NCBI RefSeq assembly: GCF_964355755.1
Contig: NC_092680.1
Location: forward strand, 1,922,001 to 1,986,000
Reading direction: 5' to 3'
DNA: 64,000 nt
Source: Antedon mediterranea
Taxonomy: Eukaryota > Animalia > Echinodermata
Translations under genes and position numbers: made by a program
Shown: positions 9,219 to 52,600 of the stretch, in pieces
Layout: each line of letters opens with the position of its first letter
Position numbering within the stretch: position 1 is the first letter of the stretch
Notes under the pieces: model-generated
Told to the model about the DNA's origin: nothing
Databases searched by the model: none
What the model saw: the letters and a program-made list of their open reading frames with translations, nothing else

Positions 9219-12200
9219 GAGATTTTTTCTAAAAATGTCCAAAATATCGACTTTTTAATATTCGATTATTATGCAATAATATGGGTATATACGCGCATAT
9301 ATTGTTTTGTATCGTCTTATAGAGCCATAGTAACAAGTTTAGTCGAAAAATAAAAAGGTCGGAATTTGAGGGATTTTTTAGGGGTAAAATTTCGACCATC
9401 TTGGATTTTGCTGAAATTTTGTACATAGCATCATATGATGATGCTGAATAAATATATGCAAAAATATTCCCACTTATATGCGCAGAAGTGCTAAAATATA
9501 GTGATTTTTGCGCATAATCAAAGACTGATCAAATATCGGCATAATTTTTTCTGAATTTTTAAGAAATCCCTGAATTATATGTAGAAATATATACATATAT
9601 AGATAGATATAATGATTCTGAATAAATATATGCAAAAATATTCCCACATATATGCGCAGAAGTACAAAATATAGCACTTTTTGCGCATACTCTTAAGAAT
9701 TATCAAATATCGGCTTATTTTTGCTGATTTTTTTAGAAATCCCTGAATTATATGCAGAAATATGTTCATAAATTGAAAGAGCATCATCATACGATGCTAT
9801 GTACCAAATTTCATCAAAATCCGAGATGGTCAAAATTTTACCCCTTAAAAATCCCTGGGCTATAGCTCAGGGATTTTTTAATGGTAAAATTTCGACCATC
9901 TTGGATTTTGCTGAAATTTTCTACATAGCATCATATGATGATGCTGAGTAAATATATGCAAAAATATTCCCACATATATGCGCAGAAGTGCTAAAATATA
10001 GCGATTTTTGCGCATAATCACAGACTGATCAAATATCGGCATATTTTTGCTGAATTTTTAAGAAATCCCTGAATTATATGTAGAAATATGTACATATATA
10101 GATAGATATAATGATGTTGAATAAATATATGCAAAAATATTCCTACATATATGCGCAGAAGTGCAAAAATATAGCGATTTTTGCGCATAATCAAAGACTG
10201 ATCAAATATCGGCATATTTTTGCTGAATTTTAAAGAAATCCCTGAATTATATGCAGAAATATGTTCATATATTGAAAGAGCATCATCATACGATGCTATG
10301 TACAAAATTTCATCAAAATCCGAGATGGTCAAAATTTTACCCCTTAAAAATCCCTGGGCTCAGGGATTTTTTAAGGGTAAAATTTCGACCATCTTGGATT
10401 TTGCTGAAATTTTGTACATAGCATCATATGATGATGCTGAATAAATATATGCAAAAATATTCCCACATATATGCGCAGAAGTGCTAAAATATAGCGATTT
10501 TTGCGTATACTCAAAGACTGATCAAATATCGGCATATTTTTGCTGAATTTTAAAGAAATCCCTGAATTATATGTAGAAATATGTACACATATAGATAGAT
10601 ATAATGATGCTGAATAAATATATGCAAAAATATTCCCACATATATGCGCAGAAGTGCAAAAATATAGCACTTTTTGCGCATACTCTAAGAATTATCAAAT
10701 ATCGGCCTATTTTTGCTGATTTTTTTAGAAATCCCTGAATTATATGCAGAAATATGTTCATATATTGAAAGAGCATCATCATACGATGCTATGTACCAAA
10801 TTTCATCAAAATCCGAGATGGTCAAAATTTTACCCCTTAAAAATCCCTGGGCTATAAAATTTGGTACATAGCATCATATGATGATGCTGAGTAAATATAT
10901 GCAAAAATATTCCCACATATATGCGCAGAAGTGCTAAAATATAGCGATTTTTGCGCATACTCAAAGACTGATCAAATATCGGCATATTTTTGCTGAATTT
11001 TTAAGAAATCCCTGAATTATATGTAGAAATATGTTCATAAATTGAAAGAGCATCATCATACGATGCTATGTACCAAATTTCATCAAAATCCGAGATGGTC
11101 AAAATTTTACCCCTTAAAAATCCCTGGGCTATAGCTCAGAGATTTTTTAATGGTAAAATTTCGACCATCTTGGATTTTGCTGAAATTTTCTACATAGCAT
11201 CATATGATGATGCTGAATAAATATATGCAAAAATATTCCCCCATATATGCGCAGAAGTGCTAAAATATAGCGATTTTTGCGCATAATCACAGACTGATCA
11301 AATATCGGCATATTTTTGCTGAATTTTTAAGAAATCCCTGAATTATATGTAGAAATATGTACATATATAGATAGATATAATGATGTTGAATAAATATATG
11401 CAAAAATATTCCTACATATATGCGCAGAAGTGCAAAAATATAGCGATTTTTGCGCATAATCAAAGACTGATCAAATATCGGCATATTTTTGCTGAATTTT
11501 AAAGAAATCCCTGAATTATATGCAGAAATATGTTCATATATTGAAAGAGCATCATCATACGATGCTATGTACCAAATTTCATCAAAATCCGAGATGGTCA
11601 AAATTTTACCCCTTAAAAATCCCTGGGCTCAGGGATTTTTTAAGGGTAAAATTTCGACCATCTTGGATTTTGCTGAAATTTTGTACATAGCATCATATGA
11701 TGATGCTGAATAAATATATGCAAAAATATTCCCACATATATGCGCAGAAGTGCTAAAATATAGCGATTTTTGCGTATACTCAAAGACTGATCAAATATCG
11801 GCATATTTTTGCTGAATTTTAAAGAAATCCCTGAATTATATGTAGAAATATGTACACATATAGATAGATATAATGATGCTGAATAAATATATGCAAAAAT
11901 ATTCCCACATATATGCGCAGAAGTGCAAAAATATAGCACTTTTTGCGCATACTCTAAGAATTATCAAATATCGGCCTATTTTTGCTGATTTTTTTAGAAA
12001 TCCCTGAATTATATGCAGAAATATGTTCATATATTGAAAGAGCATCATCATACGATGCTATGTACCAAATTTCATCAAAATCCGAGATGGTCAAAATTTT
12101 ACCCCTTAAAAATCCCTGGGCTATAAAATTTGGTACATAGCATCATATGATGATGCTGAGTAAATATATGCAAAAATATTCCCACATATATGCGCAGAAG

Positions 12201-14275
12201 TGCTAAAATATAGCGATTTTTGCGCATACTCAAAGACTGATCAAATATCGGCATATTTTTGCTGAATTTTTAAGAAATCCCTGAATTATATGTAGAAATA
12301 TGTTCATAAATTGAAAGAGCATCATCATACGATGCTATGTACCAAATTTCATCAAAATCCGAGATGGTCAAAATTTTACCCCTTAAAAATCCCTGGGCTA
12401 TAGCTCAGGGATTTTTTAATGGTAAAATTTCGACCATCTTGGATTTTGCTGAAATTTTCTACATAGCATCATATGATGATGCTGAATAAATATATGCAAA
12501 AATATTCCCCCATATATGCGCAGAAGTGCTAAAATATAGCGATTTTTGCGCATAATCACAGACTGATCAAATATCGGCATATTTTTGCTGAATTTTTAAG
12601 AAATCCCTGAATTATATGTAGAAATATGTACATATATAGATAGATATAATGATGTTGAATAAATATATGCAAAAATATTCCTACATATATGCGCAGAAGT
12701 GCAAAAATATAGCGATTTTTGCGCATAATCAAAGACTGATCAAATATCGGCATATTTTTGCTGAATTTTAAAGAAATCCCTGAATTATATGCAGAAATAT
12801 GTTCATATATTGAAAGAGCATCATCATACGATGCTATGTACCAAATTTCATCAAAATCCGAGATGGTCAAAATTTTACCCCTTAAAAATCCCTGGGCTCA
12901 GGGATTTTTTAAGGGTAAAATTTCGACCATCTTGGATTTTGCTGAAATTTTGTACATAGCATCATATGATGATGCTGAATAAATATATGCAAAAATATTC
13001 CCACATATATGCGCAGAAGTGCTAAAATATAGCGATTTTTGCGTATACTCAAAGACTGATCAAATATCGGCATATTTTTGCTGAATTTTAAAGAAATCCC
13101 TGAATTATATGTAGAAATATGTACACATATAGATAGATATAATGATGCTGAATAAATATATGCAAAAATATTCCCACATATATGCGCAGAAGTGCAAAAA
13201 TATAGCACTTTTTGCGCATACTCTAAGAATTATCAAATATCGGCCTATTTTTGCTGATTTTTTTAGAAATCCCTGAATTATATGCAGAAATATGTTCATA
13301 TATTGAAAGAGCATCATCATACGATGCTATGTACCAAATTTCATCAAAATCCGAGATGGTCAAAATTTTACCCCTTAAAAATCCCTGGGCTATAAAATTT
13401 TGTACATAGCATCATATGATGATGCTGAATAAATATATGCAAAAATATTCCCACATATATGCGCAGAAGTGCTAAAATATAGCGATTTTTGCGCATACTC
13501 AAAGACTGATCAAATATCGGCATATTGTTGCTGAATTTTTAAGAAATCCCTTAATTATATGTAGAAATATGTACATATATAGATAGATATAATGATGCTG
13601 AATAAATATATGCAAAAATATTCCTACATATATGCGCAGAAGTGCAAAAATATAGCGATTTTTGCGCATAATCAAAGACTGATCAAATATTGGCATATTT
13701 TTGCTGCATTTTTAAGAAATCCCTGAATTATATGTAGAAATATGTACATATATAGATAGATATGATGATGCTGAATAAATATATGAAAAAATATTTCCAC
13801 ATATATGCGCAGAAATAAAAAAATATAGCACTATTTGCGCATACTCTCAGAATTATCAAATATCGGCCTATTTTGGCTGATTTTTTTTAGAAATCCCTGA
13901 ATTATATGCAAAAATAGGTTCATATATTGAAAGAGCATCATCATACGATGCTATGTACCAAATTTCATCAAAATCCGAGATGGTCAAAATTTTACCCCTA
14001 AAAAATCCCTGGGCAGCTCAGGGATTTTTTAAGGGTAAAATTTCGACCATCTTGGATTTTGCTGAAATTTTGTACATAGCATCATATGCACAACTTTTCC
14101 CATATATATGCGCAGAAGTGCAAAAATACCAAATTTCATCAAAATTTTACCCCTAAAAAATCCCTGATAGGGATTTTTTCGAAAAATGCCCAAAATATCT
14201 ACTTTTTAAATTTAAATTATTATGCAATAATATGGGTATATATGCACATATATTGCTTTGTATCATCTTATAGAG
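9219..14275. repeat. Palindromic higher-order tandem array (1269-bp period built from ~150-bp subunits and 78-bp inverted arms)
   Basis: Near-identical spurious ORFs recur at 10018/11287/12556 (spacing 1269); recurring CCCTG-ggct-CAGGG hairpin centres; ~100-bp direct repeat near both ends (9219-9324, 14170-14275). Confidence 0.95.
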
Positions 14276-16459: not shown

Positions 16460-19400
16460 CTTCGATTGAAAAAGAAAGATTGAATAGTCGTGTGACTGAG
16501 TAGTTAAGGCAGCTAAGGATCAATAGCCATGGTTGCGCAGTTAAGGCAGGTAAGGATCAATAGCCGTGGCTGAGCAGTTAAGGCAGGTAAGGATCAATAG
16601 CCGTGGCTGAGCAGTTAAGGCAGGTAAGGATCAATAGCCGTGGCTGAGAAGTTAAGGCAGCTAAGTATCAATAGCCATGGTTGAGCAGTTAAGGCAGGTA
16701 AGGGTCAATAGCCATGGCTGAGCAGTTAAGGCAGGTAAGGGTCAATAGCCATGGCTGAGCAGTTAAGGCAGCTAAGGATCAATAGCTATGGCTGAGTAGT
16801 TAAGGTAGCTAAGGACCAATAGCCATGGCTGCGCAGTTATGGGAACTAAGGATCAATTATGTTATATAAAGCAATTTTTAAACATATCAACAAAACAAGT
16901 TTTATTGTTGAGATCAACTTTGTATTAAATAACACTACTTACCCTTGGGCAACTGTAATGTAACCTGGTGGGCAACCACATGAGAAGCTACCTTGAGTGT
17001 TATCACATCCATAAGAACATGGTGATAGCCTATCACATTCATTAACATCTAAAAATAATCAATATTTATACAGTATGTTTAAATGATGACAATGCTCCGC
17101 GTTCTAGTAAAAAATTATCAAATAATTACCGTCAACAAGTTTTTATTAAACAATTGGTCAATAATTTTGAAACTTCTATCAATTTTATATCAAGAATTTA
17201 CAGTATAGCTCAGTTATGGATTTGTTTCAGCGCAGTAAGTAAGTAAGTACAATAGTAATGAATAAAACTACCAAATTTGAGAACTACAGTATCTGGGCCT
17301 CACTATGCACAAGAGGCACATTTGCAAATAACTAGTGTATATGATCGAATAAAATCACATGATCATTTCCACCTCTTAATTTAGACCATTAAGGCTAACA
17401 AGCCTGCTTCAGCTTACCTTGACAGCCTGACTGATAATTATCATATTCAAAGCCAGTATTACAGTTACATGAGTAACTTCCATCTGTATTTACGCACTGT
17501 GCATTGCCACACATACCAGGTGATAGACATTCATTCTCATCTAAAACAATATAAATATGACTAAAATTAATAATAGAATGGCTGTATATGGGCCAAAAAG
17601 CCCCCTTAACCCTGCCACACTCTATCGAAAGAAGATAGACTGTGGCGATTAAAGGTAAATTCAAGGTAAATATATTTACTAATTATATAATGAGAAATAA
17701 ACTAATGACTAAGTGTGTTATTATGTAAATATCACATTTAAATTGCACTCTTTTCACGAATAAACATGTCTGAATGCGCTTTACATAACGAATGGACATG
17801 GAAATAACTGTACTTGATTTTCATCTACATGCTTCTTCCCCATAAAGGCAAATTTACATAGAAAAGCAGTAACGGTACTACAAATAGAAACTATGTTACT
17901 TCTTATGACCATTTACATAAACATGAAGAAGACCGATGATTTCTGCTCAGGATAGACACAGATTCTAGGTGGGACAAGCTACACGATTTTCAGCTTACAG
18001 TTACCGCTTGTCTGTGTGAATTGGCCTTGTTATGTACAACAAGGTAATCATATAGAATAAAGTGAATATGCATACCTCTACAGTGACTGCCATATGCATA
18101 TGGGATGTAGCCAGCTGGACAATTACACTGGTATCCACCTACAGAGTTCTCACAATCATACTGACACCTGCCTTGCATCGAACACTCATCCAAATCTGCC
18201 AAAATTCAAACATTGACATTGTTAATGTCAAATTATATAATTTGGTTATATAGAAAGCAAGAGAATGGCAGAGAGATATTGAAGTTGAGTACCACACTAG
18301 ATTTACATAGTGAGTGAAGCTAAAAAGATTACATATTGCATATTATATAACAAATTCCTGTCATTTGATTGGACAATTGTGGGTCACATGACATGCAATA
18401 TGCACTATTGAACGGTTTCTTACCAATACACTGAGTACCAGCTTCATCCAATCGGAATCCTCGTTTACAGTCACATCTGTAGCTGCCTTGCATGTTATGG
18501 CAGATACCGTGAGCGCCACAAATCTGAGGATCTGTTGTACACTCATCTATGTCTGTTGAAACGAATTTTAATTAGCATTTAATGGAAGAGCATTTTCTTA
18601 CATTGCATAGGTTGCGCTACGTTGCGTCGCTAGTGGGAACCACACTTAAGGGATCGGACTAGTGTGAGAGGTATGCGTTTTATTGTTAGTATCACTAAGC
18701 AAGATGATAGTTTCAGAATTTGATACACTATTCATTAAGTGTAGAGAATTTTGTCCATGTGTGTTGATCTGGGTAGTCCCTGCACTGCTAGCTGGCCAAA
18801 TTTTGTACATTTATATTTTTATATTACATTTAAGGACAGACTACATGTAATAGAATAGACACTGGAACTTGGGATGGTAAAGTCAAACAAATATTTATAC
18901 ACTATTTTAACCTACCAATGCAGTTAAGTCCACTTTGACGATATCCATCTGGACAAGAACAGAGGAAACTTCCTTGTGTGTTGGTACATTGATATTGACA
19001 ACTATGGCGGCCAGAGGCACATTCATCAATATCTAAAACACAAATGCAATGTCTTTAATGCAATATTTTGTAAGTAGTAGTTTTGGTAGCTTGGTATCTA
19101 CATTCATTTATTAGTTAGGGTAAGAAAAGGAGATGAAGAGAAGGAATCGTTGGGTAATTGGCTTCTATCTCCAAGATGTGGTGTCTTTACAATTTTGAAA
19201 CACCGCTTTCCCCACCCCTATAATAATGAAATAAAACTTTCTTTAAAGCTCTGTGTACACTATCAAACTAGTTTAACAAAAAAAGTGTGATGTACCCAAA
19301 TATGGTAGTGATATACCCAAATATGGTAGTGATATGACATCATCATCATGTCCATATATGGGCACATCATTTTTTTTTTTTCACATAAATTTTGATAGTG

Positions 19401-22400
19401 TAGACAGAGCTTAAGATGTACTTTAATTGTTTACATACCAACACAAGTAGCACCATCCGGTGAAAGCTGGAATCCTACATGGCAACTACAGCTATAACTT
19501 CCAATCGTGTTGGTACACTTGAACGGACAAGGTGATTGAGGGCGCTTGCATTCGTCCTCATCAACGCAGTGTGTGCCATCAGGATGCAGAATGTAACCAA
19601 CATTGCACTGACACAGGAATGACCCCTGGTTGTTCAAACAACGGCCATTCTCGCAAATGTCGGGTAGTACTTGGCATTCGTTGATATCGTTGCAATCTCT
19701 GTTGTAGCCTGCTCCACATGTACACATCTGCATGTATGGTGCTAACAAATGAAAATACACCCTAATTAAATACATTTTTTATCAGACCAAACCTTCAGGA
19801 GACACCTCTATTTATGAGACACTTCTATTCAGGAGACACCTCTATTCAGGAGACACCTCTATTCAGGAGACACCTCTATTTATGAGACACATCTATTCAG
19901 GTGACAACTCTATAAGGAGAGTTCCATTTCCATTTCAACACTATGGTAAAACTCTATTCAAGGATCACCCCTATTAAAGGGACACTTAGGTCCCATCCTC
20001 TTTTAGGAGTTCAATTGTATAGAGATATCCATGGTTTATTTCCATATCCGTATATAGGAAAAAATATAATGAAAAAAAATAAAAATCTTACTTGATCCAA
20101 ACATAGGGCAGTGTTCGCAGTTCTGTCCCCAGGCCTTGCCTCCTCCACAACAGCATTCATCTAACGTAACTGGGCCTAGCACGGCTGATGGTGCTGTACA
20201 TATGCCCTGAGGTAGATCCGCAAAACATGAGCCAACACGATTATCTTAATAAATAAACAAACAACAAAAAATATTTAAATCTCAACATACTGCTCTAAAA
20301 TATGTTAAAAAAACTTTGAAACTGCACAATGGATTAAGGAAATTTAAATCCTAACAAAGGGTTGCCATAAATCATAGAAATAAAAATGGCACAGCAATAA
20401 GTTCTGGTTGTAAAATGAGGAATGGACTTAAAACTGGAGCTCCAGTGTCCACATCTGCCTAATGTGTACTTTCAAGAACTCATACGTACATCTTTTCAAT
20501 TTTATCATGGCATTCCAAATTTAATATATTGTATATAGTGTATAAAAGCTAAATATAATTAGCTAAATTGGTCAACGTTATATTGTTATCCCTTCTATTT
20601 AACTTAACTTTTTTCTATAGTTGTATATTAAAAACATGATGAAACAACTATGTATGTATGTACAGATTAAACCTCATGCTCAATCAATGGTATCTTACCT
20701 AGACACCTGAGTCTATCTGGGCTTGGTACATATCCTGTGTTGCAATCACATTCATAGCTGCCTTCTATGTTAATACATCGGCCATTTTGACACAGATTAC
20801 GATTGTTTTGGCATTCGTTAATATCTGAAAAATAAATAAAATTGTATTTGGAAACTTAAAAGAGATAGAATAAATGTTTCTTTCTTTACATAAATGGTAA
20901 CAATTTATTAAATAGAAGGTTTCAAATTCTTATTTTTTACAGATTTGTTTGTTAACTATTTATAATCATACCCATCAACCAATCAGATAGTGCCATATTA
21001 AGCATATGCAGATTCAAAGGCGGCCACCTGACCGCCTTTAAATTTAGAAAAATACAATTCAAAATATAGAACATTACTTTACAATTCTTAGGCTCCTTTA
21101 TTTTAAAATTATAAATTCGCTATTGCTAATCACGTGTTTTAACATTTAACTATACAAAATATAACAAAATCGGTAAAACCTCACCAATACAAACATCTCC
21201 TCTTCGGTTAATAGCTCTCATACCAGGTGGACACATGCATCGGAATGTACCAATCAGATTCTTGCAATCAAATTTACAATTATTGGCAGATGTCAAACAT
21301 TCATCTAAATCTGAAATGACATAAAAGAAAATTAGAAATAGAACACTAGATATATATATCACGTTGATACTGTGTGTGAGCGGTTCTGGACATATATCAG
21401 AGTTTTAAAATATTTAAATGTCTCATCTATTATATTCTACTAAAACATAAAATATTAAAATCTCCCTCTATACATACATACATTTATTAATTTCTATCAA
21501 TGGTGAACAATACAAAAATAAATGGTAATATACACAATGAAACAATACCATAGAGGATCTTGCAAGAAGAAAATTTCTTGTCACGCAAGACCATAAACGA
21601 AAAGAAAAAATGCACACAACTCCACAATTAGAGTACAGTCAACTCTCCCAATACCGGACACCTTTGGGCCGGCCAAATAAGTCTGGTTTTCCGGAAAGTC
21701 TGGTATTCGGAATGTGTTTTTAATGGTAAAATTAAATTTGGGACCTTTTGGTCCTCAAAAAAAGTCTGGTATTGGGAGAGTTTCTGGTTTTCAGAGAGTC
21801 CGGTATTGGGAGAGTTGACTGTATATATAAAAGTAAATATATTAAAGTCTCATATATGAAGCTTTGGTAGTGTAAAACTCTGTCTACAATATCAAACTTT
21901 TTTGTCAAACTATTGAAGACATATAGCTTAAATGTATTGGCCATCATAAAAATCCTACTATGACAGGATTTGACACGATAACCCTGGGATTGGTAAGTAA
22001 GCATGTCAACTACCAAGCCATAGTGTTACTATAACAGATAACTAAAATTCATCTTACCTTCACAGCTTTTACCATCAGGTTTGAGAGTATAGCCTCTGGG
22101 ACAGATACATTCAAATGAGCCTGGCAAATTCTTGCAACGGAAAGCACAGAAATTACGGTTGCGATGGCACTCATTGATATCTACATTGAAAACATTTTTG
22201 TTTTAAAATATTTCATACATAATGATAAATTTAACTTTCCTTGCAGAATTCAAACTCGGATTTGGTCCAGTAACCAATTTTTAACAGACATGTACAGTGT
22301 GTACAGAATGAGTTTAGTGTGAACGGGTCTATTCTTAAACACTGTGTGTGAATGTAGGTTTAAATGTCTGTATACCTTCACATACACCAGTGTAACCTGG

Positions 22401-31400: not shown

Positions 31401-34400
31401 TTGGTTAATGCACAAAGCATTCAAATGACACTCATCTATCTGTGTGTCACATTCATCAACATCTAAAAGTCAAAAGAATTACTCTATGATATTGTGCTCT
31501 TAAGAAAATCTATAATTACAAACAAAAATATGAAGATGACCGCGAGAGGCGTTTACGACGCAGGGGCTGTTCAAATGTACCTGTCGAGGGGTGTTCATAT
31601 TCTTGGAATACTGTTATTTTTGTGTCTACAAGAAGGGAAATGTATTGGCAAATTTGGCATGCTAGTTTGGCATGTTAGTTTGGCATGTCATTTATTTGCC
31701 ATTGGGGTGGTGTAAAAATAATTTGAAAAACTTGCCTACACAGCTGATACCATTGCCTTCAAAACCTGGTTTGCAATCACACACAAATGAACCCTTGATG
31801 TTGATACATTCTGAGTTCATAGCACAGTTGTGCACTCCCATCTCACATTCATTAATATCTGAAAGTAAACAACTTGATTTATTTATTTTTTTATTTTTAT
31901 TTTATTTAGTCAAAACCAACAGCGATAAATACCGCCACTAACAGGTTTGAAACATAAAACAATACAACATAAAAAACAGTTAACAATAAAATACAGATAA
32001 AATATATAAATATACTGTATATATATATATAACATAGATCGGCATGCCATAAACAATTTCAATTTAAAATTTATATTAATCAAACAGGTTATGCAGGGTA
32101 GTCAAGAAGTGAACACATAATCGTCCTCTTAAAATAACCAAGTCTATTAAAATGTACGATTTGTTATTAATACCTCCTCCAGAATAAGTGAGAGGTTATG
32201 TGGTCGGTCGTGTGTGGGGGTGTTTTTGTGAGAGGTTATGTGGTCGGTCGTGTGTTTTTGTGAGAGGTTATGTGGTCGGTCGTGTGTTTTTGTGAGAGGT
32301 TTTGTGGTCGGTCGTGTGTGGGGGTGTTTTTGTGAGAGGTTATGTGGTCGGTCGTGTGTTTTTGTGAGAGGTTATGTGGTCGGTCGTGTGTTTTTGTGAG
32401 AGGTTATGTGGTCGGTCGTGTGTTTTTGTGAGAGGTTTTGTGGTCGGTCGTGTGTGGGGGTGTTTTTGTGAGAGGTTATGTGGTCGGTCGTGTGTTTTTG
32501 TGAGAGGTTATGTGGTCGGTCGTGTGTGGGGAGTTTTTGTGTTTGTTTCTTTCTATATTCGTTAGCATGATTACACAAAGTGTTATTGAGGCTGATTTTC
32601 ATAAAATCTTAAAGGATGTTTTCATAGCTGTATGTGAACAATGCCCTTCTAGTTAATATTGTGGTTTATGTATGATTTGTTTTATATTATAAATACTGTA
32701 GTCTCAGACAATTACACCAGTAAGTAGGTTCTACTTATTTATTTTATTTCACCTTATTTATAGAGGGTGACCTAAACAGCGTATGCTGACAATCAAGGGG
32801 TCATCTTGATGAGTTATGATAAGTGTCTGTGTATGACAGTGTTCCCAGTGGCTCCTTAGTTTATTGTTCTGTCAGACTTACCTAAACATCCCATACGTCC
32901 AGGTTTCATTGCATATCCCATTTCACAGTGGCAAAGGTATGATCCGCGTGTATTCTCGCAACGCCCATCCAGGCATATCGTTGGATTCAGATCGCACTCG
33001 TGGAGATCTAAACAGTTTTTGTTATCAGCAGAAACTCGGAATCCAGCAAAACATGTACAGGTATAAGAACCAGGCTGATTGGTACACATGCCACCCCCAC
33101 AGACATTCAGGTCCTCTACACATTCATCTACATCTGTTTAAAGAAAATAAGAATTATATATGATTATTATATAAATAATAAATGACACTAAGAATATTTT
33201 TATGATTTTTTTTTCAATTCAATCATCTTTATTGCAGCTTAACTTGTGTACAATTATGTTTTGGTTTATAACAGATCATCTCAATGTCAAATAAATATAT
33301 GTAAGAAAAATTACATTTTTTAAAGTTTGTTTAGTCTTTTGAGTTAAGAAAGATGGACTAATCTATTTAATAAAGCAGACTTAATGAATGCACACTGAAG
33401 GTTGATTTTTGACATACACTAATGCCAATGCATCCAAGTATAAAGGTACATATTATATTTATTTTTTGGAAGTTCCCATTTGAATACTGTTGTAGAACAT
33501 AAACATAAATTCAAGCATAGAAAAGCATTCAATTAAAGGAAGATTTTTTAGTGGTACATCAGTTACATGTATTTCAAAGGTGTACTTACCTACGCATGTT
33601 TTTCCATCTGGTAGAAGGAGGTAGCCTGGGTTGCATTCACACAAAAAGCTTCCTAAGCTGTTCTTACAAATGTGATCACACCCTCCGTTGTTCATGTCAC
33701 ACTCCTGGATATCTGAAATAAACACAAAAAAAATATAATATCATTTTAGCCTCTGAACAATACTACTCAATGAAATATGGTGATTCTGTTAAATTCTTGG
33801 CAATATTTTACATATCTGCTCTGAAATCAATAGGCATGTAAACATGGTCATGTTTTATGCCTTATAGGGCCTGTTCACACTTATAAAATAACTAAGGCTG
33901 AACAAGCCTACTGACTCAACCATGTTTATGTTTTGAAGTTCCTGTTTCCACTAGTAAATTTATTAGCTAACACTTTACTGTAACTGTACCTTGGCATGCT
34001 TTAAAGTTGACAGTTGATTTAAATCCAGCATTACACAGACAACGATAACTTCCAAGAATGTTATGACATCTTCCATTAGAACAAATGCCATGAGTTGTAG
34101 AACATTCATTTACATCTGAAAAAAAAATCATAAATCGTACTTATAAAGAAATTTATTTATTTTATTTTATTTCAACTTTATTTATAGAGGGTAACCCTCC
34201 CAGCATGAACCCGCAGGTCAGCTGATATCCAGAAGCCCTCTTAAAAATGACAAAACATATAAAACTATAATTAACTAATACGAATCTACTATATACATTT
34301 AAATTTAAAACAATTATCCAAAAAATAATTATCTAAACAAATATTCAATTAGACAATTACGATAAAATGGATAAATTGTTTATTTTCTATATCTTTCTTT

Positions 34401-43600: not shown

Positions 43601-46600
43601 TTCTGGTAGAACCACCCTTTTTCTGGGAATTAAGAATTGTAAAGCTGGTAGATAAATTTAGAGGGAAGTCAGGTGGTAAAATAGGAATGAATAAATAAAA
43701 TAATGTAAAATACTCCATATTTATATGAACTTACCTTCACAAATTTTTCTATTATTTGTCATTGGTTGGTAGCCAGGGTTGCAAGTGCAGGAGAAACTGC
43801 CCATTTCGTTGAAGCAAACACCATTGCGACAGTTTCGGGGATCCACACATTCATTTATATCTGAAGAGACATAATCAACAGTTACAAACAAATTCTTCAC
43901 TTCTGTTCCATGACTTTATCTGTATGAATTTTTAAAACATGTGGAGACAGAGGTCAGGAGTTAAAGGTCAAGAGTCAATCTTGAAGGGTTCTCAAAAATT
44001 ATTATAAGGAAATTAGTGGGCAAATTATGTATTTAATCATAGAAACATTTGTCCCCTCTTTTTTAACATTCTAAATCATTTTTTGATTCATAATTAGCAA
44101 GAAATAAAGTAAACATATAATAAGTACAATCAGAATATAAAAGTTGGTTACAAAACTTGATATTTAGTGCAGATGAATACAATAATAAATATAGCATAAC
44201 TTTTTTTTAAATACAGACATAAGATAATATGTATATTGATTATATAAAAATATAAAAAAAAATATAATTGTTTATTAGAAAGTTTTCAGCATGCAGAAGT
44301 TAATAGAATGAAACATCCATTGGGTTAAGGTTTACCCTTGCAAACTCATTATCATCATTGTTGTCATCATTTCTTTAAGCCCTGTCCACACTATCAAACT
44401 TTATGTGACAAAAACATTTGATGTGCCCATATATGGACATGATGATCTCAAAGCAATACCATATTTTAACACATCACACTTTTGTTGTCATACTAGTTTG
44501 ATAGTGTAGACAGAACTTTACTCTGTAATAGAAATAATTAGCACTAGTACTTTTAAGGTCATAGGTCATAATCATGAGATTTTACAAAGAGATAAACAAT
44601 ATTAAATGTAATGGAAGAAGTAATAACAAATTAGAATATAGGCCTAGTACAATAAACATGGGAAAACAAAAGCCCAGCAAAATGACATACAACAGAAATT
44701 TTAAAAAAATAAAAAATAAAACATAGTTTTTTCATAAAGTTTGCTTGCTTTTCATGGTATGAAATTATTTTCTTTTGGTAATTAAAAAAAATAACAATAT
44801 TGAACTTTATTTCTCAGTTTTTTCAGATTTTTGTGGATAATACCACAGAAAGCAAACAAATTCATATTAAGCAACACAAATAACAAATATTATATATGTT
44901 ATACTTAATTGATTAAATACAGTATAATTTATTTTACATTCTGCGGATGTGTAGTACATAACATAATAATATTGCACTTACAATAAGTTTGCCTGTAAAA
45001 CTTTGCTTTAAGCTCTGTCTACACTATCAAACTAGTTTGACAAAAAAAGTGATATTCCTAAATATGGTAGTGCTATGACATCATCATGTCCATATATGGT
45101 CACATCACATACAGTTTGATAGTGTAGACAGAGCTTTAGCTATTAAAGCACCCATATATTGTTATGTTATTGTTAGAAGCACATCTTAAAATACAAAGAA
45201 GTTGTGTTAATAAAGAGAGAAAGAAAAATAAAACATTTTGATTCATTAGAATTGTTAGCTAAATAATTCCAAAAGAAAATCTGCAAGTGAAATGAAAAAT
45301 AGATGAAAAAGTTAATGTTGATTATGTAGATATCTGCATGACGCATGATGCAACATCCCAGGCTCACCTATACACATGTTACCACTGAGTTCAAATCCTT
45401 CATCACACATACAACGATAGGAGTTTCCTGGTATGTTGATACACTGTCCATTTTGACAGATTCCATTGAAACGTGTACAGATGTCTATCCCAATAACTGG
45501 TCCTGGCGATACTTGTGCTGGTTGATCAGGTTTATATGGTGGACCGCGAGGTCCATCAGTTCCTGGGCCTCCAGGGACTCCAGGGACGCCTGGACCTCCA
45601 GGGCCGCCTGGACCTCCAGGGCCACCTGGAAGTCCAGGGATGCCATTGACAGGTGGAAAGCCACTAGGTCTTGGTCCAATGGGGTCTGTGACACAAAGAC
45701 TTTGGTATCCAACTATAAAAGACATACACAGCAAACACAAATATCAGTAAACTAATATCTACTAATGAACGAATAATTAAACTCACCTACACAAAATCGT
45801 TTTCCATTCAGTTGGAAACCATGGTAGCAGATGCACATAAATTTAGAATCCTCTAAATCATAGCACAATCCATTTTGACAAACGTCGGGGTATTGTTTAC
45901 AAATCTTAAACTCAGGTATATCAGGTGGGGGCCTAGGATCCTTACACAAACGATTGTAAGAGGCTGAAATGTCATTTGCAAGTTAAATGCTTTAAATATA
46001 CTATGAAAGCTCACTATATAAATCAGGACCACTGTTGAAAACTACTTATGTAAATAAAAAAAAAAAATCATTATTAATGCAATCATTATTAATGCAATTA
46101 CAGCAAAAATGAAATTCATTGAAGAATGATTGGAGCCATATACTATAAAGCATTGCATCATTTGACAAATATAAACGTGCAAATATACAAACCAATATTA
46201 ATATTTAAAACCTAAGAAATTAATCGAATGCCTGGGTTGGCATTTATCAATATTTGCTTATATTTAAGCAATTTGTATTAAACCGTCTTAGCAGAAAAAT
46301 TGTCTTAGGTAAATTTTACTTTGAGCATGCGTAAAATAAAACTCCAGAGGGCAGCAAATTATGTCCTAAAACGAAAAATCCTTGCTTACATAAATGGGTT
46401 ACACAAATCATCACCTCCATAAATAGGCCTACATACAAATAAGGCCAGTGGACTAACATTTACACAAAAAATGACCCACAAGAAGGTAGTACAATTGAGG
46501 CTAGGCAATCTAGCTAACCATGCTAAATTTCTGGATTTAATGGTGATGCGTCATCATAGTTACCAACTGCATTTCAAGGTGATTTTTAACGAAACACGCA

Positions 46601-49600
46601 CATGCGAGACCACATATTTGTCACGCATTTAGCAGAAGTATATGCGTGACATTTTTTTCACTATTTGAGTGGAATTTGTAGGACTCTGGCTCATATACTT
46701 TGTGTCCGCTTGGTAACTATGCATCTTGGGATGGTAAAAGTCAATTTATTTATTTTTCATTTATGAGTTACAATTTACCATCATGTTTGGCAATATGCCC
46801 ATCTGGAAATAAAATGGTAAGATGGCAAGGAGATGCCTTATAGTATAGCTAGACAAAGTTTGTATCTTTTAATTCATTTATTTAAATATGATACTAACTG
46901 GTTCCTCGCTGTGGGCAGCTGATGCAATCCAGTCTGTCACCCCATCCTCTTCCACTGTTAGTGCAACAGCAATCATAAATAGAATACAGTTGTGGTAATG
47001 GCGTGCTACAACGTCCTTCAGTATCGGATCTAGTATAACAATAATCTACCCGAGACACTGAAAAACAATTTAAATATTTTATGATATTTAAAAAATCTCC
47101 ATAAACTTTTAAAATCATAGCAATATGAATTCAGAATTTACCTGCATAAATGAAAATACAATCATAACAATAATAATTTGATCTGTATATTTCATGTTTC
47201 CACAACAATTCTTTTAAATATTATATAATATGCACAACTTATACTCTTTGGAATCCACACCAAGTGCCCAAATATGGTGGTTATATGCCTAAATATGGTA
47301 GTGATGACAACATCATGTCCATATGACACCTCACATTTTTTTGCCACAGATTTTGATAGTGTAGACAGCTTAAAGATGTATTGTCCTCCAAAAACATGAA
47401 AAATGAAGATTAATTAAATCAGACTTTGAATAGGTTATTGTGTAGTTTTAATCAAGTTAATCAATTGCGTAGAAAAAACCGGAAAAAATGATGTTTTCAC
47501 TTATAAAATAACAAAATAAATGGTAAAATTTAACTAAATTACAGTTTTTTCAGGTAAATATTTTTTTTTCTCGATCCAATTTTTGGTCAAAGTGGATAAC
47601 TATTATATGATATTAAAATGGCATATTCAACAAAAAAATTTAAAAAAACATTGTTTTCAGGGGGACAATACATCTTTAACAATGACTAGCAAATTTAAGC
47701 ACTTTTATAGAGCGCTGAAGGATACAAAACAGATATGAAAATCCAATGAGTAATAAAATATGATTTCTCAATTATTGACCTTTAACTCATCACCAACATT
47801 GATGGTGACAGATAACGAATAATAATGAACAACAGTACCATGATGAAAAATTAAAAACACACAGAGATGACACCATGATGACAGACTATAATGCCATTAC
47901 TAAACAAGATTGTAAAGTTCTGCCTACACTATCAAACTAGTTTGACAAAAAAAGTGATGCACCCACATATTGTGGTGATATGCTCAAGTATGGTAGTGAC
48001 ATGACATCATCCTGTCCATATATGGGAACATCACATTTTTGTCACAAAGTTTGATAGTGTAGACAGAGCTTAAGTTTGTTGTCTCCAATATTCCTGGTGA
48101 TGCTCATGGCATATGACTGTGTTATTAAAGATAGCAAAGGAGACTTTTATGGAATATACCATTAACTGGCAAATAGAGATAGAAATGAAAAGATAGCCCG
48201 ACATGAAAAAAATAGCAGACACAAGCACTTCAATTAACAATTTTTGGTCCTGGGACCCTATTTAAAAATCCTGGATCTGGAATTGGCCTGTGTTTTGGAG
48301 GGTACTTGTTCAATAAGTTGGGTTCACCTTGTTTAATCCATACTACCATGGTTGATCCAGCATTATAGATTAGTGAGGGGGGGGGGGCACCTAATGATTT
48401 TATAAATGATAAAAACGATCCGTCGGGTGGCAGAAAAATAAATTATTTATTTTTAAAAAGAGATGGCTGTTAAATGTTGGGGGGGGGGGGGGGTCGGGTA
48501 AAGCATGTTTAGCCCCCATCTAAATCCGTGCCTTACTGCTACTAATACATAAAGCAATGGGAAAAGAAGTAAAAAACTCACCAATACACTGATCTCCATT
48601 AGGACTAATAATATACCCATTTCGACATAAGCAACTAAAAGTGCCTTCTGCATTTATACATTGTCCATTTTGACATAGGCCAGGTTGAAGCAGGCATTCA
48701 TCAATATCTATAAGAAAGAAATTGATTTACATTATTTTATCAAATTTCTGCATATGGTCTTAAACAGCAATTTACAACTCCACTCTATTGCAAGATATTT
48801 TAGATTGGACATTAAAGTCATTAGTGTACAGCACAATATTAAAGAAACACCATTTAACGCTTCGTTCACAACATGAATGTTTTGTTTTTCTGCTATCCAT
48901 CAATATATGCGTAGCCGCGTGGAGGGTTGTGAAAACAAAACATTGACGTTTGATTTGATTTGCTGGCGCCGGATCAGAACCGTGCCGGCACAGGTGTGAA
49001 AGACCCTTAAGTATTGGTTAATCTGCAACTATGATCTGAGGTTGGCTTAACCAAGTTACACAAACAAGTATCTAATTGTTGGTGGACATTAAGGGCATAA
49101 TAAATGTACATAACGTATTATAACTTTAGAACTTATTCAAGTCATATATCTCTTTGACATTGCCTATAAAAAAAACAGAAAGAGTTTGTGTGCGCTGCAG
49201 TCACTAGCGTTAATGGCTATGAGCACTCACTGGCCAAACCCAGGGGCCAGATTTTTATGGGGGAACCTGGGCAGTGCCCAGAGAAAAAAAACCGGCATTA
49301 AAATAATGTCAAAAAGGGATAAAAACACCACCCGAGGTCTCCAACATTGGAGGGCCACTAGGGGTTCCTAAGCCAGGGGCCTCAGGTCTCTGCGTTACGC
49401 CACAGTGTGTGCAAAATGCGGAGTTTTGCTAGCGGTAATAATAATATACAGTGTATATATATATTATGTTATAATAATGTTACCTTCACATCGATTTGTA
49501 ATCGGGTTCACTTGATATCCCTGGACACATTGACATGTAAAAGAGCCTATTGTATTAACGCACTGACCATTCAGACATAGATTAGGTATAACTTGGCATT

Positions 49601-52600
49601 CATTTACATCTGAAAATAAAACATAAACATTTTCAATGTAATCTTTATATTTTTTTTTAAATGTTCTCGTATTTTTATGTATATTTGTAAAAATTAAATG
49701 TTTTCCTAAATGTAGTTTCTCTAAATAAAAGCTCTGTCTACACTATCAAACTCTATGTGACAAAAATGTGATGTGCCCATATATGGACATGATGATGTCA
49801 TATCACTACCATATTTTGGCATATCACCACCATATTTGGGCACTTTTTTTGTCTGACTAGTTCGATAGTGTAGACAGAGATTAATGTAATGATGATCACT
49901 GCCATATTTATCCACATCACATTTTGATAATATAGACAGCTTAACATGGTCTTATGAGACTTGGATAGTGGCACTATATTGGCCATACAGGAAGATCCAG
50001 GAATTGAACCAAGAACCCTGGGATTGGTAAAGAAGCATGTCTACCACCAAACCACAGTGCCACTTTCCTCAATGTATTTAAAATGCAATACAGTGTAATT
50101 TAATAAATACTCTTCCCAATATATTTCTTTAAATAAAATCACTTTAAGTTTACCAATGTTATTCAAAACTTGAATATTCAATCGAGAATATTGTTTTTAA
50201 CCTAAAGTGCAGTAAACCAGAACAAAATGTAAAATACCTACATATTACAATACCAATGAACCACAGAGCTGCATTTTTTTTTTTAATCTATTTTAAGTTA
50301 CATTTTTTATTTCTCATTTGAGAATAAACTCTATTCTAAATAGACAACCAGTCTACATTTTTATGCAAAATCAGTATAAACAAATCATGTATCTATGGTA
50401 ACAACAAATAATTACTTTGTCAGATGATATTGTTATATTATTTTGAATATGGAAACGCTATAATGTAAAATAGTAAAGTTAATAAAAAAATAATTTATGA
50501 ATTATTGAGGTCTTGAACTATATAAATACTTTATATGAATACTCAAGTGATTAAGTAATGCTGTTTGTCATTTGTCAGAGTTTCTAGATTAAGACTACTG
50601 CCTCTAAGATGTTTCTATTAGCATTAAAGCTCTGTCCACACTATCAAACTTTATCTATCAACAAAATGTGATGTGCCTATATATGGACATGATGATGTCA
50701 TATCACTACCATATTTGGGAATATCACTACCATGTATAGGCAAATCATACTTTTTTTGTCAACTAGTTTGATAGTGTAGACAGAGCTTTAGACATGTAAT
50801 GACATATTCAAGTAAAAATTTAAAATATGATATCCTTCCTTCATACAATTAAAATATTATTCCAAAAATAAAACAATTTCTATATAATATAAATACATAC
50901 TTCATAGCTGACATGGTGTACTTACCTATACACTGCTGAGTAGCTCTGTCAAGTATATATCCTTTAGCACACGGCGCTGATTGGGTAGAACATTGCTGAC
51001 ACGGACTGCCCCAAGCTTGACCAACGGTTGCACAGCATAGCGCCATTGTACAGCGCAGATTAGTAAGTAAATCCGTGCACTGGTTCGGACCAATATATGT
51101 TTTATAACAAGGACCAGTCCTATAATCTAAAACATGAAGGAATAAAAGAATTTATAGATAGATTATAAAACTATTTTAGTGATTTATAAAACTAAAGCTC
51201 TGTCTACACTATCAGTCTATATAGTTTGAACAAAAAGTGTGATGTGCCCAAATATGGTAGTAATATGACATCATCATGTTCATGGGCACATTACATTGTT
51301 GTCACATTAAGGTTGATAGTGTAGACACAACTTTAGTTGCAATGTGATATATTATAAATTTTTTATTTTCAATATCATTACATTATTGACTTAATTATCA
51401 TTTTTTCACAAATACCAATATCTTTAACAATATTTAATAATAATAACTATATATTAAAATATTTTTTTTAAAAACAAGTAAATTGTCACTAGGACCTAAT
51501 ATTTAATAATAATATCTTAATTTCATCTCCGAACATTAACTCCTTCCAGAAGCTATGGTACGTAAAACATGCGATTCTGTTTACATTTATTGCAACTCAT
51601 TTCAAGCTTGTGAAAATAGACAAGTTTTGAAGCTGATTAACCTGTCACTATATCTGTTACCGACGCACACGCTTTGTGACCCCGGATACCAATGACCTAT
51701 TAACACTAAATGTAGTAAAGAATGGTAGTCTGTGATTAGTATTAGATACTGTGTATATGGTATGACAGGCATAGGGGAAGTAGATGACATAAGATGAACA
51801 TATTGATTGCCTACAGGTATTAATGTTCAATTTGTTTTATTTCTCAATAAAAATGAAATCTTTGTTGCCATAAATTTATTAAATATACAAGGGTAAATTG
51901 TTATCAAAATCCCATATATAGTAGGCCTATATCCTCGGGTATAATCCTACATCTTGTTTAATCCCACCCCCAACTTTATGTCTGATTTCACAAACAGGCA
52001 TATCCCTGGGTATAGTCCCAGTTTTGACTTTTGGTCTGGATGTCTCTCTAGCCAGTTCAGATGAGTTTTTACTTGGGGTACCTGAGTCTAGGACTCTCAT
52101 CTTCTCCTCTTCCATCCGACAATAGTATTAGTATTTGATCCTTAATAAAACCTCTGCATATAACATAACCCAAGTACATAACCCAATGAAAAAAAAATTT
52201 AAATGTTTTCTTTCATGTTTTTTTTTTCTTTTGAGCTTTCCCTCCTTTATAACAAATGTTTATAAATGGAAATAAAGAAAGAAAGAAGACGACTTCACAA
52301 AATTCTCTCTGAATCCCCCAAACAAACTTTAAGGTCATCCTGAGTGTCATTTCTTTCACATTCAGTTCTTCCTCAGCAAAAAGTTATAGAAGTCAGTGAT
52401 TGATTTGTGTCTTGGCATAGTTGGTCAACTTTGTACTGAGAAGTGATGTTTAATTCCCCAAATGAAAACAAATCATTAGCATCCACGAATTTGCCATCAA
52501 GAATAGTTATCATAATATACTATAATGCGAAACTGTTCTATTTAGTGCTCTAAAGGCTGTGTGCTATGAGTTTAAATTGAAGCTATTGATATGTAGCATG

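Follow-up and report, generated by a model that had tools for sequence, protein, structure and literature searches.

The hinge between TB1 and EGF4 is the main sequence difference among the vertebrate fibrillins. This unique region is Pro-rich in FBN1, Gly-rich in FBN2 and Pro/Gly-rich in FBN3 (PMC3306419, PMC5639267), and its Pro-rich version is a candidate folding site of microfibrils, although what it does is said to be essentially unknown (PMC5639267). It has been reported in vertebrates only and tied to elastin, the urchin and amphioxus cases being left undetermined (PMC3306419). Splicing is also known in these genes, as one N-terminal domain of FBN3 is optional (PMC3306419) and FBN1 transcript isoforms are on record; there too the domain content of a fibrillin is changed, but the available parts of these reports describe no choice between two hinge/EGF4 exons. 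Here we analyse 64,000 nucleotides of the echinoderm Antedon mediterranea (NCBI RefSeq assembly GCF_964355755.1, contig NC_092680.1, positions 1,922,001 to 1,986,000 of the forward strand; this whole stretch is called the window below). Its reverse strand carries a fibrillin gene in which two neighbouring exons, A and B, each finish TB1 and encode a linker and an EGF4. Whereas the hinge is varied across three genes in vertebrates, here it differs between two exons of one gene, and EGF4 is swapped with it. We consider it probable that the two are an old duplicated pair and that A is spliced in place of B in some unsampled tissue or stage.

Exons 2 and 3 of alpha-tropomyosin are a case of mutual exclusion by steric interference. 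In human mutually exclusive exons (MXEs), a distance of less than 50 nt between donor and branch point serves as the criterion for such interference (PMC5740500). The Antedon pair shares with the homologous MXEs of that study the adjacency of homologous exons, the reading frame, the phase, the position in the protein and a short intron, to which are added a predicted donor-branch distance below 50 nt and a folding penalty for including both exons or neither. It departs from them in length, since MXE prediction there calls for similar lengths and the two exons here measure 177 and 345 nt. This criterion is a search convenience and not a mechanistic need. As A and B differ twofold in length, a predictor relying on it would therefore miss the pair. 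The word fibrillin appears nowhere in the main text of PMC5740500.

The exon pair between TB1 and cbEGF3

The TB1 exon (46899-47057, reverse strand like all the exons described here; 159 nt; Pfam TB, 39.8 bits) encodes seven of the eight TB cysteines. It is followed by exon A (45787-45963, 177 nt), a 74-nt intron (45713-45786), exon B (45368-45712, 345 nt) and the cbEGF3 exon (43735-43860, 126 nt), which is the downstream exon common to both forms. All four exons are bounded by AG/GT, are of phase 1-1, have lengths that are multiples of 3 and contain no stop. Exons A and B each open with the helix that ends TB1 and carries its eighth cysteine (SYNRLC in A, GYQSLC in B), continue with a linker and close with a six-cysteine EGF devoid of the D-I-N-E-C calcium consensus (Pfam EGF, 25.7 bits for A and 22.4 bits for B; cut-off 21.5). 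A previous reading of the locus, made from the sequence alone, had proposed these two exons as a mutually exclusive pair; the boundaries, lengths and phases that it gave are exact, and the content that it assigned to each exon (last TB1 cysteine, hinge and full non-calcium EGF4) is borne out.

The difference in length between A and B lies entirely in the linker. Counted from cysteine to cysteine, that of A has 14 residues, with 5 Pro and no Gly, and that of B has 71, with 21 Pro and 21 Gly (30% each), in agreement with the approximately 14 and 70 residues of the sequence-only reading. The hinge of B is built on a 9-nt PGG/PGV repeat (approximately 45553-45656). It occupies the same TB1-EGF4 position as the vertebrate unique region and matches its length; its make-up is closest to that of pre-eutherian FBN3 (31% Gly, 20% Pro; PMC3306419). 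B thus has the long, cysteine-free, Pro/Gly-rich linker of the vertebrate type and A does not. The opposition between a Pro hinge and a Gly hinge, under which the pair had initially been presented, is sound for B, which is vertebrate-like, and fails for A: with 14 residues against approximately 60 in human FBN1, the linker of A is not an FBN1-like Pro-rich hinge and resembles those of the short-linker invertebrate models. The A/B choice would thus be one between a short linker and a long Gly/Pro hinge, with EGF4 exchanged too.

Neighbouring exons that are similar and have the same frame and phase are what is expected of a mutually exclusive pair. Indeed, when only coding-strand tblastn matches that bear an EGF are considered, A and B are reciprocal best matches (41.6 bits and E 7e-9 with A as query), and no third copy is found between TB1 and cbEGF3. 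Their EGF4 domains have 14 of 39 residues in common. Among 14 EGF exons of the window that we aligned, a longer C3-C4 loop is found only in A, B and the EGF following TB5. An origin of exon A from the similar exon that ends TB4 or from that which ends TB6 was ruled out, as both have the calcium consensus and a shorter C3-C4 loop.

The cysteine count constrains the combinations of these exons. The stretch from TB1 to cbEGF3 has 20 cysteines if just one of the two exons is included, 27 if both are and 13 if both are skipped, so that a protein containing both exons, or neither, would be left with one unpaired cysteine; the orphan cysteine predicted earlier for joint inclusion is thereby recovered. 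In an AlphaFold model whose input was an alignment of 14 rows taken from exons of the gene itself, the EGF part of exon A reaches a predicted local distance difference test score (pLDDT) of 84-93 in 10-residue blocks. The hinge of exon B has a low pLDDT, 40-51, in a single-sequence model. B would supply a 71-residue disordered Gly/Pro hinge, whereas A would give a tether of 14 residues and another EGF4. Proteins of the A and B forms would differ in the fold-back of their N-terminal part or in their range of extension within the microfibril.

Transcripts and splice sites

Five sequencing runs contain the stretch, none of them recorded as RNA, and three were compared with positions 45340-45990. 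X2 and X5, which come from one sample that may be the source of the window itself, are DNA-like and show this region as a single piece without splicing. The contigs of X1, by contrast, join exons at canonical sites, and this run was accordingly taken to be RNA. One X1 record (depth 86.9) holds the whole of exon B and 187 more letters, the 30 of which that are shown are the start of cbEGF3; another, 60 nt long (depth 76.8), joins the last 30 letters of the TB1 exon to the first 30 nt of exon B. Both junctions were assigned from loose-end letters identical to the end of TB1 and to the start of cbEGF3. These records show that the product listed for X1 is TB1-B-cbEGF3, with exon A skipped. A third record (454 nt, depth 7.0) is unspliced: it covers the A-B intron, exon A and the upstream intron, and is unbroken at both splice sites of A. 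It matches 45683-45990 of the window and runs 146 letters further, past the compared stretch.

Inclusion of one exon with skipping of its neighbour was thus found for the B form only. Two of the junctions expected under mutual exclusion (46899 to 45712 and 45368 to 43860) are present in this run, and the two that would carry A (46899 to 45963 and 45787 to 43860) are not; the skipping of A, one half of the proposed exclusion, is therefore established by RNA, and the inclusion of A was not seen. The direct A-B join (45787 to 45712), expected to be nearly absent, is indeed not listed, nor is any TB1-A or A-cbEGF3 join, among the X1 contig records for 45340-45990. Such contigs show presence and not absence, as rare forms are dropped, and contig depth is a poor gauge of level.

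The splice sites of this region are unusual within the gene. When ranked against the unfiltered set of 52 internal exons, the donor of the TB1 exon (GTTAGT) is the weakest of the 52 internal donors, and none of the 52 other acceptors is as weak as that of A or that of B. The donor of exon A is near-consensus and outranks 41 of the 52. The acceptor of B is as weak as that of A and yet it is used, so this weakness marks the locus and not A alone. Weak sites of this kind, here the TB1 donor and two acceptors, usually signal regulated splicing, and they would leave the A/B choice to regulators.

With its 74 nt, the intron between A and B is the shortest of 53, the next having 124. It contains a predicted branch point, CTGAT, whose A lies 43 nt from the donor of A and approximately 31 nt from the acceptor of B; beyond this motif, just three adenosines (+45, +62 and +71) precede that of the acceptor itself. 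So short an intron, with a predicted branch point this close to the donor, would likely prevent the joining of A to B by steric interference.

Other ways of enforcing exclusion were rejected. Nonsense-mediated decay after a frame shift cannot enforce exclusion, as the length of each exon is divisible by 3 and A+B is in frame without stops. An incompatibility between U2 and U12 introns is likewise ruled out, since the donors (GTTAGT, GTGAGT and GTGAGC), compared with the minor-intron consensus, are of the major type. A docking/selector pairing was sought in 8 region pairs, which gave 3 stems of 11-12 bp, none of them convincing. Folding predictions are unremarkable both for the region from A through the intron to B (z -0.13) and for the A-B intron alone (z -0.42). 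The branch motif can be placed in a hairpin, but this attains z -2.06 only if it is excised post hoc, and its centroid is unpaired.

Age and standing of exon A

Relatives were compared by eye in the fibrillin alignment of supplement S13 of PMC10381214, which has 18 sequences, 15 of them with the region; it gives one gene model per species and is therefore uninformative about isoforms. The nearest sequence is the Anneissia japonica model (An._jap._FBN2), identical to the window gene at 23 of 27 residues of the FUN exon and at 22 of 22 of EGF1, compared with 10 of 22 EGF1 residues for S. purpuratus; as Anneissia is a crinoid, a crinoid is also the most likely source of the window gene. The Anneissia model has an orthologous, B-type exon with a Gly/Pro hinge of 53 residues, against 71 in B, and shares with B a C5-C6 loop of 10 residues. 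A keeps a loop of 11 residues and a Pro four residues past the first cysteine, like the urchin, starfish and sea-cucumber models. As the EGF4 of B is nearer to that of Anneissia (27 of 38 residues, by eye) than to that of A (14 of 39), the duplication predates the split between the Antedon gene and that of Anneissia. Over 57 aligned codons, the nucleotide identity of A and B is just 53%, and different codons are used at 11 of their 22 identical residues; judged from this divergence, exon A is an old copy. A and B would accordingly both descend from an exon that finished TB1 and encoded a hinge and EGF4.

Is exon A still in use? Its in-frame codon log-odds (0.16) is above that of all 5000 intron windows (maximum 0.05) and is therefore not due to chance. 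The sole variant seen in it, an allelic difference at 45791 (reverse strand) in runs X1 and X5, affects the third base of the last cysteine codon and is synonymous. In a simulation of a neutral copy, run without indels and scoring as intact a copy with seven cysteines, no stop and AG/GT, the copy was intact with a probability of 0.0036 after 0.2 and of 0.00025 after 0.3 substitutions per site.

Several observations weigh against the use of A in place of B. No spliced junction of exon A was observed, A being seen only in the unspliced X1 contig; this evidence comes from a single RNA run with no recorded tissue, in which the TB1-B record extends 30 letters to either side of the junction, one below the 31-letter bridging rule applied. 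The codon log-odds of A is at the lower limit of what constitutive exons show (0.16 against a minimum of 0.15), its synonymous-codon score is -0.03 for a median of 0.09, and no acceptor in the gene is weaker than that of A; the weak acceptor and the low codon scores fit recent decay and rare use equally well. In the same simulation, the probability of remaining intact is 0.55 at 0.02 and 0.23 at 0.05 substitutions per site, which permits a loss of the function of exon A within the last 2-5% of the divergence. The branch point on which the steric argument depends is a guess from the motif, and the 50-nt criterion is a human one that may not be that of echinoderms.

Furthermore, no orthologue of exon A was found in relatives by protein-size-limited, alignment and metagenome searches. 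With exon A as query, proteins of 103-2000 aa yielded no candidate, and the exon B query gave 3 matches, none from an echinoderm, among 7991 scored in the range 201-2000 aa; both ranges leave out full-length fibrillins. In the alignment search, the best 120 of 340 matches were all of LTBP size (1693-2170 aa) and were LTBPs wherever named. A TB1 search of representatives gave 26 matches, mostly single-exon open reading frames, LTBPs or noise, and the metagenome scan gave 4 loci among 98 stretches, all of them short Pro-rich chance matches. The ESM Atlas returned leads under 0.9 only, and the PDB generic EGF matches only.

These points could be explained by a formerly used exon A that is now silent or nearly so, B having taken over and A beginning to decay. 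The absence of spliced A from the one RNA run, its weakest acceptor, its low codon scores and the B-only Anneissia model, with the reservation on isoforms made above, all go in this direction. However, A retains its seven cysteines, an open frame, a near-consensus donor and an EGF fold of high pLDDT; the equally weak acceptor of B is used; the simulation requires the loss to be recent; and the 74-nt intron is still uniquely short and without the element, resembling a miniature inverted-repeat transposable element (MITE), of the neighbouring introns. We hold the silencing of A to be rather unlikely.

A second possibility is that a substantial share of the transcripts carries A and B in tandem, giving a sixth EGF like that of the amphioxus, Ciona and oyster fibrillins. 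The frame of A+B is open, and these three models do have six EGFs between TB1 and TB2. However, their sixth domain is a calcium-binding EGF and not a second TB1-end/EGF4 module, the cysteine count becomes odd, and no A-B joint is listed; moreover, the depths of the TB1-B and unspliced records (76.8 and 7.0) nearly add up to that of B (86.9), for what contig depth is worth as a measure. In all four echinoderm models, five EGFs separate TB1 from TB2, the number reached here when just one of A and B is included, and two EGF4-like domains or an orphan cysteine occur in none of the 15 models that contain the region. Tandem inclusion therefore seems to us very improbable. It is equally hard to credit that A matters mainly as a non-coding part of a TB1-B intron whose slow splicing or retention limits how much fibrillin is made. 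In favour of this, the unspliced contig runs from the A-B intron through A into the beginning of the upstream intron, whereas no contig covers the intron that follows B. However, a gap in contigs is no proof, slow splicing is expected at any alternative region with weak sites, and the conserved cysteines and fold of A would be left unexplained.

Invertebrate hinges and the host gene

The length of the TB1-EGF4 linker varies widely among invertebrates. It is short in oyster (10 residues), Ciona (14), starfish (9) and sea cucumber (13), and long in urchin (47, Pro/Thr), amphioxus (approximately 74, Gly/Pro) and, among vertebrates, human FBN1. In amphioxus a long hinge coexists with six EGFs, which means that the hinge was not a mere substitute for an EGF. 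The spliced exon B, together with the Anneissia and amphioxus hinges, argues against the view that invertebrates lack the unique region and against its elastin-linked origin (PMC3306419), and does so independently of whether A is used. The short-hinge Patiria and Apostichopus models have Gly/Pro/Asp repeat inserts after TB4. Among the classes of echinoderms, the place of a flexible insert may thus have shifted from one TB linker to another.

Echinoderms have no tropoelastin (PMC10381214), and fibrillin microfibrils occur in their mutable collagenous tissue (PMC10381214, PMC5897022). More fibrillin work in echinoderm connective tissue has been called for (PMC10381214), and the string "splic" appears nowhere in PMC5897022. 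We found no description of alternative fibrillin hinge exons in the literature searched, from which most subscription journals are missing; RefSeq may already list both the A and B forms. If A is indeed spliced in place of B, natural isoforms that differ only in the hinge/EGF4 module, in an elastin-free animal, would make the role of the hinge directly testable. It would also mean that one gene could tune fibre flexibility, and would provide a molecular handle on the mechanics of echinoderm connective tissue. A much broader scenario can be drawn, in which one gene switches its microfibrils by splicing, tissue by tissue and including the mutable ligaments, between a short-tethered form and an elastomeric one with the long Gly/Pro hinge; the pair would be ancient, the starfish, urchin, sea-cucumber and amphioxus models would be single members of hidden pairs, and the hinge would predate elastin. 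Taken as a whole, we regard it as unlikely.

The host gene (15973-55128, reverse strand) runs from an N-terminal FUN exon to a C-terminal exon with a furin site (RRRR). Besides A and B, 52 internal exons were modelled, with the frame open throughout; the first exon, coding for the signal peptide, was not located in the window. Its membership of the fibrillins is supported by the FUN domain, hybrid 1 (the 9-Cys exon at 51126), hybrid 2, seven TB domains (seven CCC motifs) and cbEGF arrays in canonical order, the EGF runs along the gene being of 2/5/3/1/12/2/7/5/7. It is also supported by an RGD within TB4 (exon 29313-29143), given as conserved in cephalochordates and vertebrates (PMC3306419) and present in the Anneissia, Apostichopus and Patiria models of the S13 alignment. 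One of the late cbEGFs (21310-21185) contains a further RGD. EGF2 appears to be reduced or missing between EGF1 and EGF3 (54725-52894), as in the Anneissia model. The first EGF after TB5 (27495-26941) is without the calcium consensus and is preceded by a short linker, again as in Anneissia; this linker and EGF are a possible second flexible point.

The MITE-like element has many copies in the introns of the gene (44377-44521, 45010-45139, 47915-48074, from 49728, and others), none of them listed in the TB1-A or A-B introns. It has terminal inverted repeats of 24-26 nt and an internal 21-nt repeat. Intronic minisatellites are found at 32188-32541 (32 nt), 16496-16857 (37 nt) and 19794-19913 (17 nt). 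Downstream of the gene, a tandem array (9369-13934) consists of 173-nt units with a higher-order repeat of approximately 1.27 kb.
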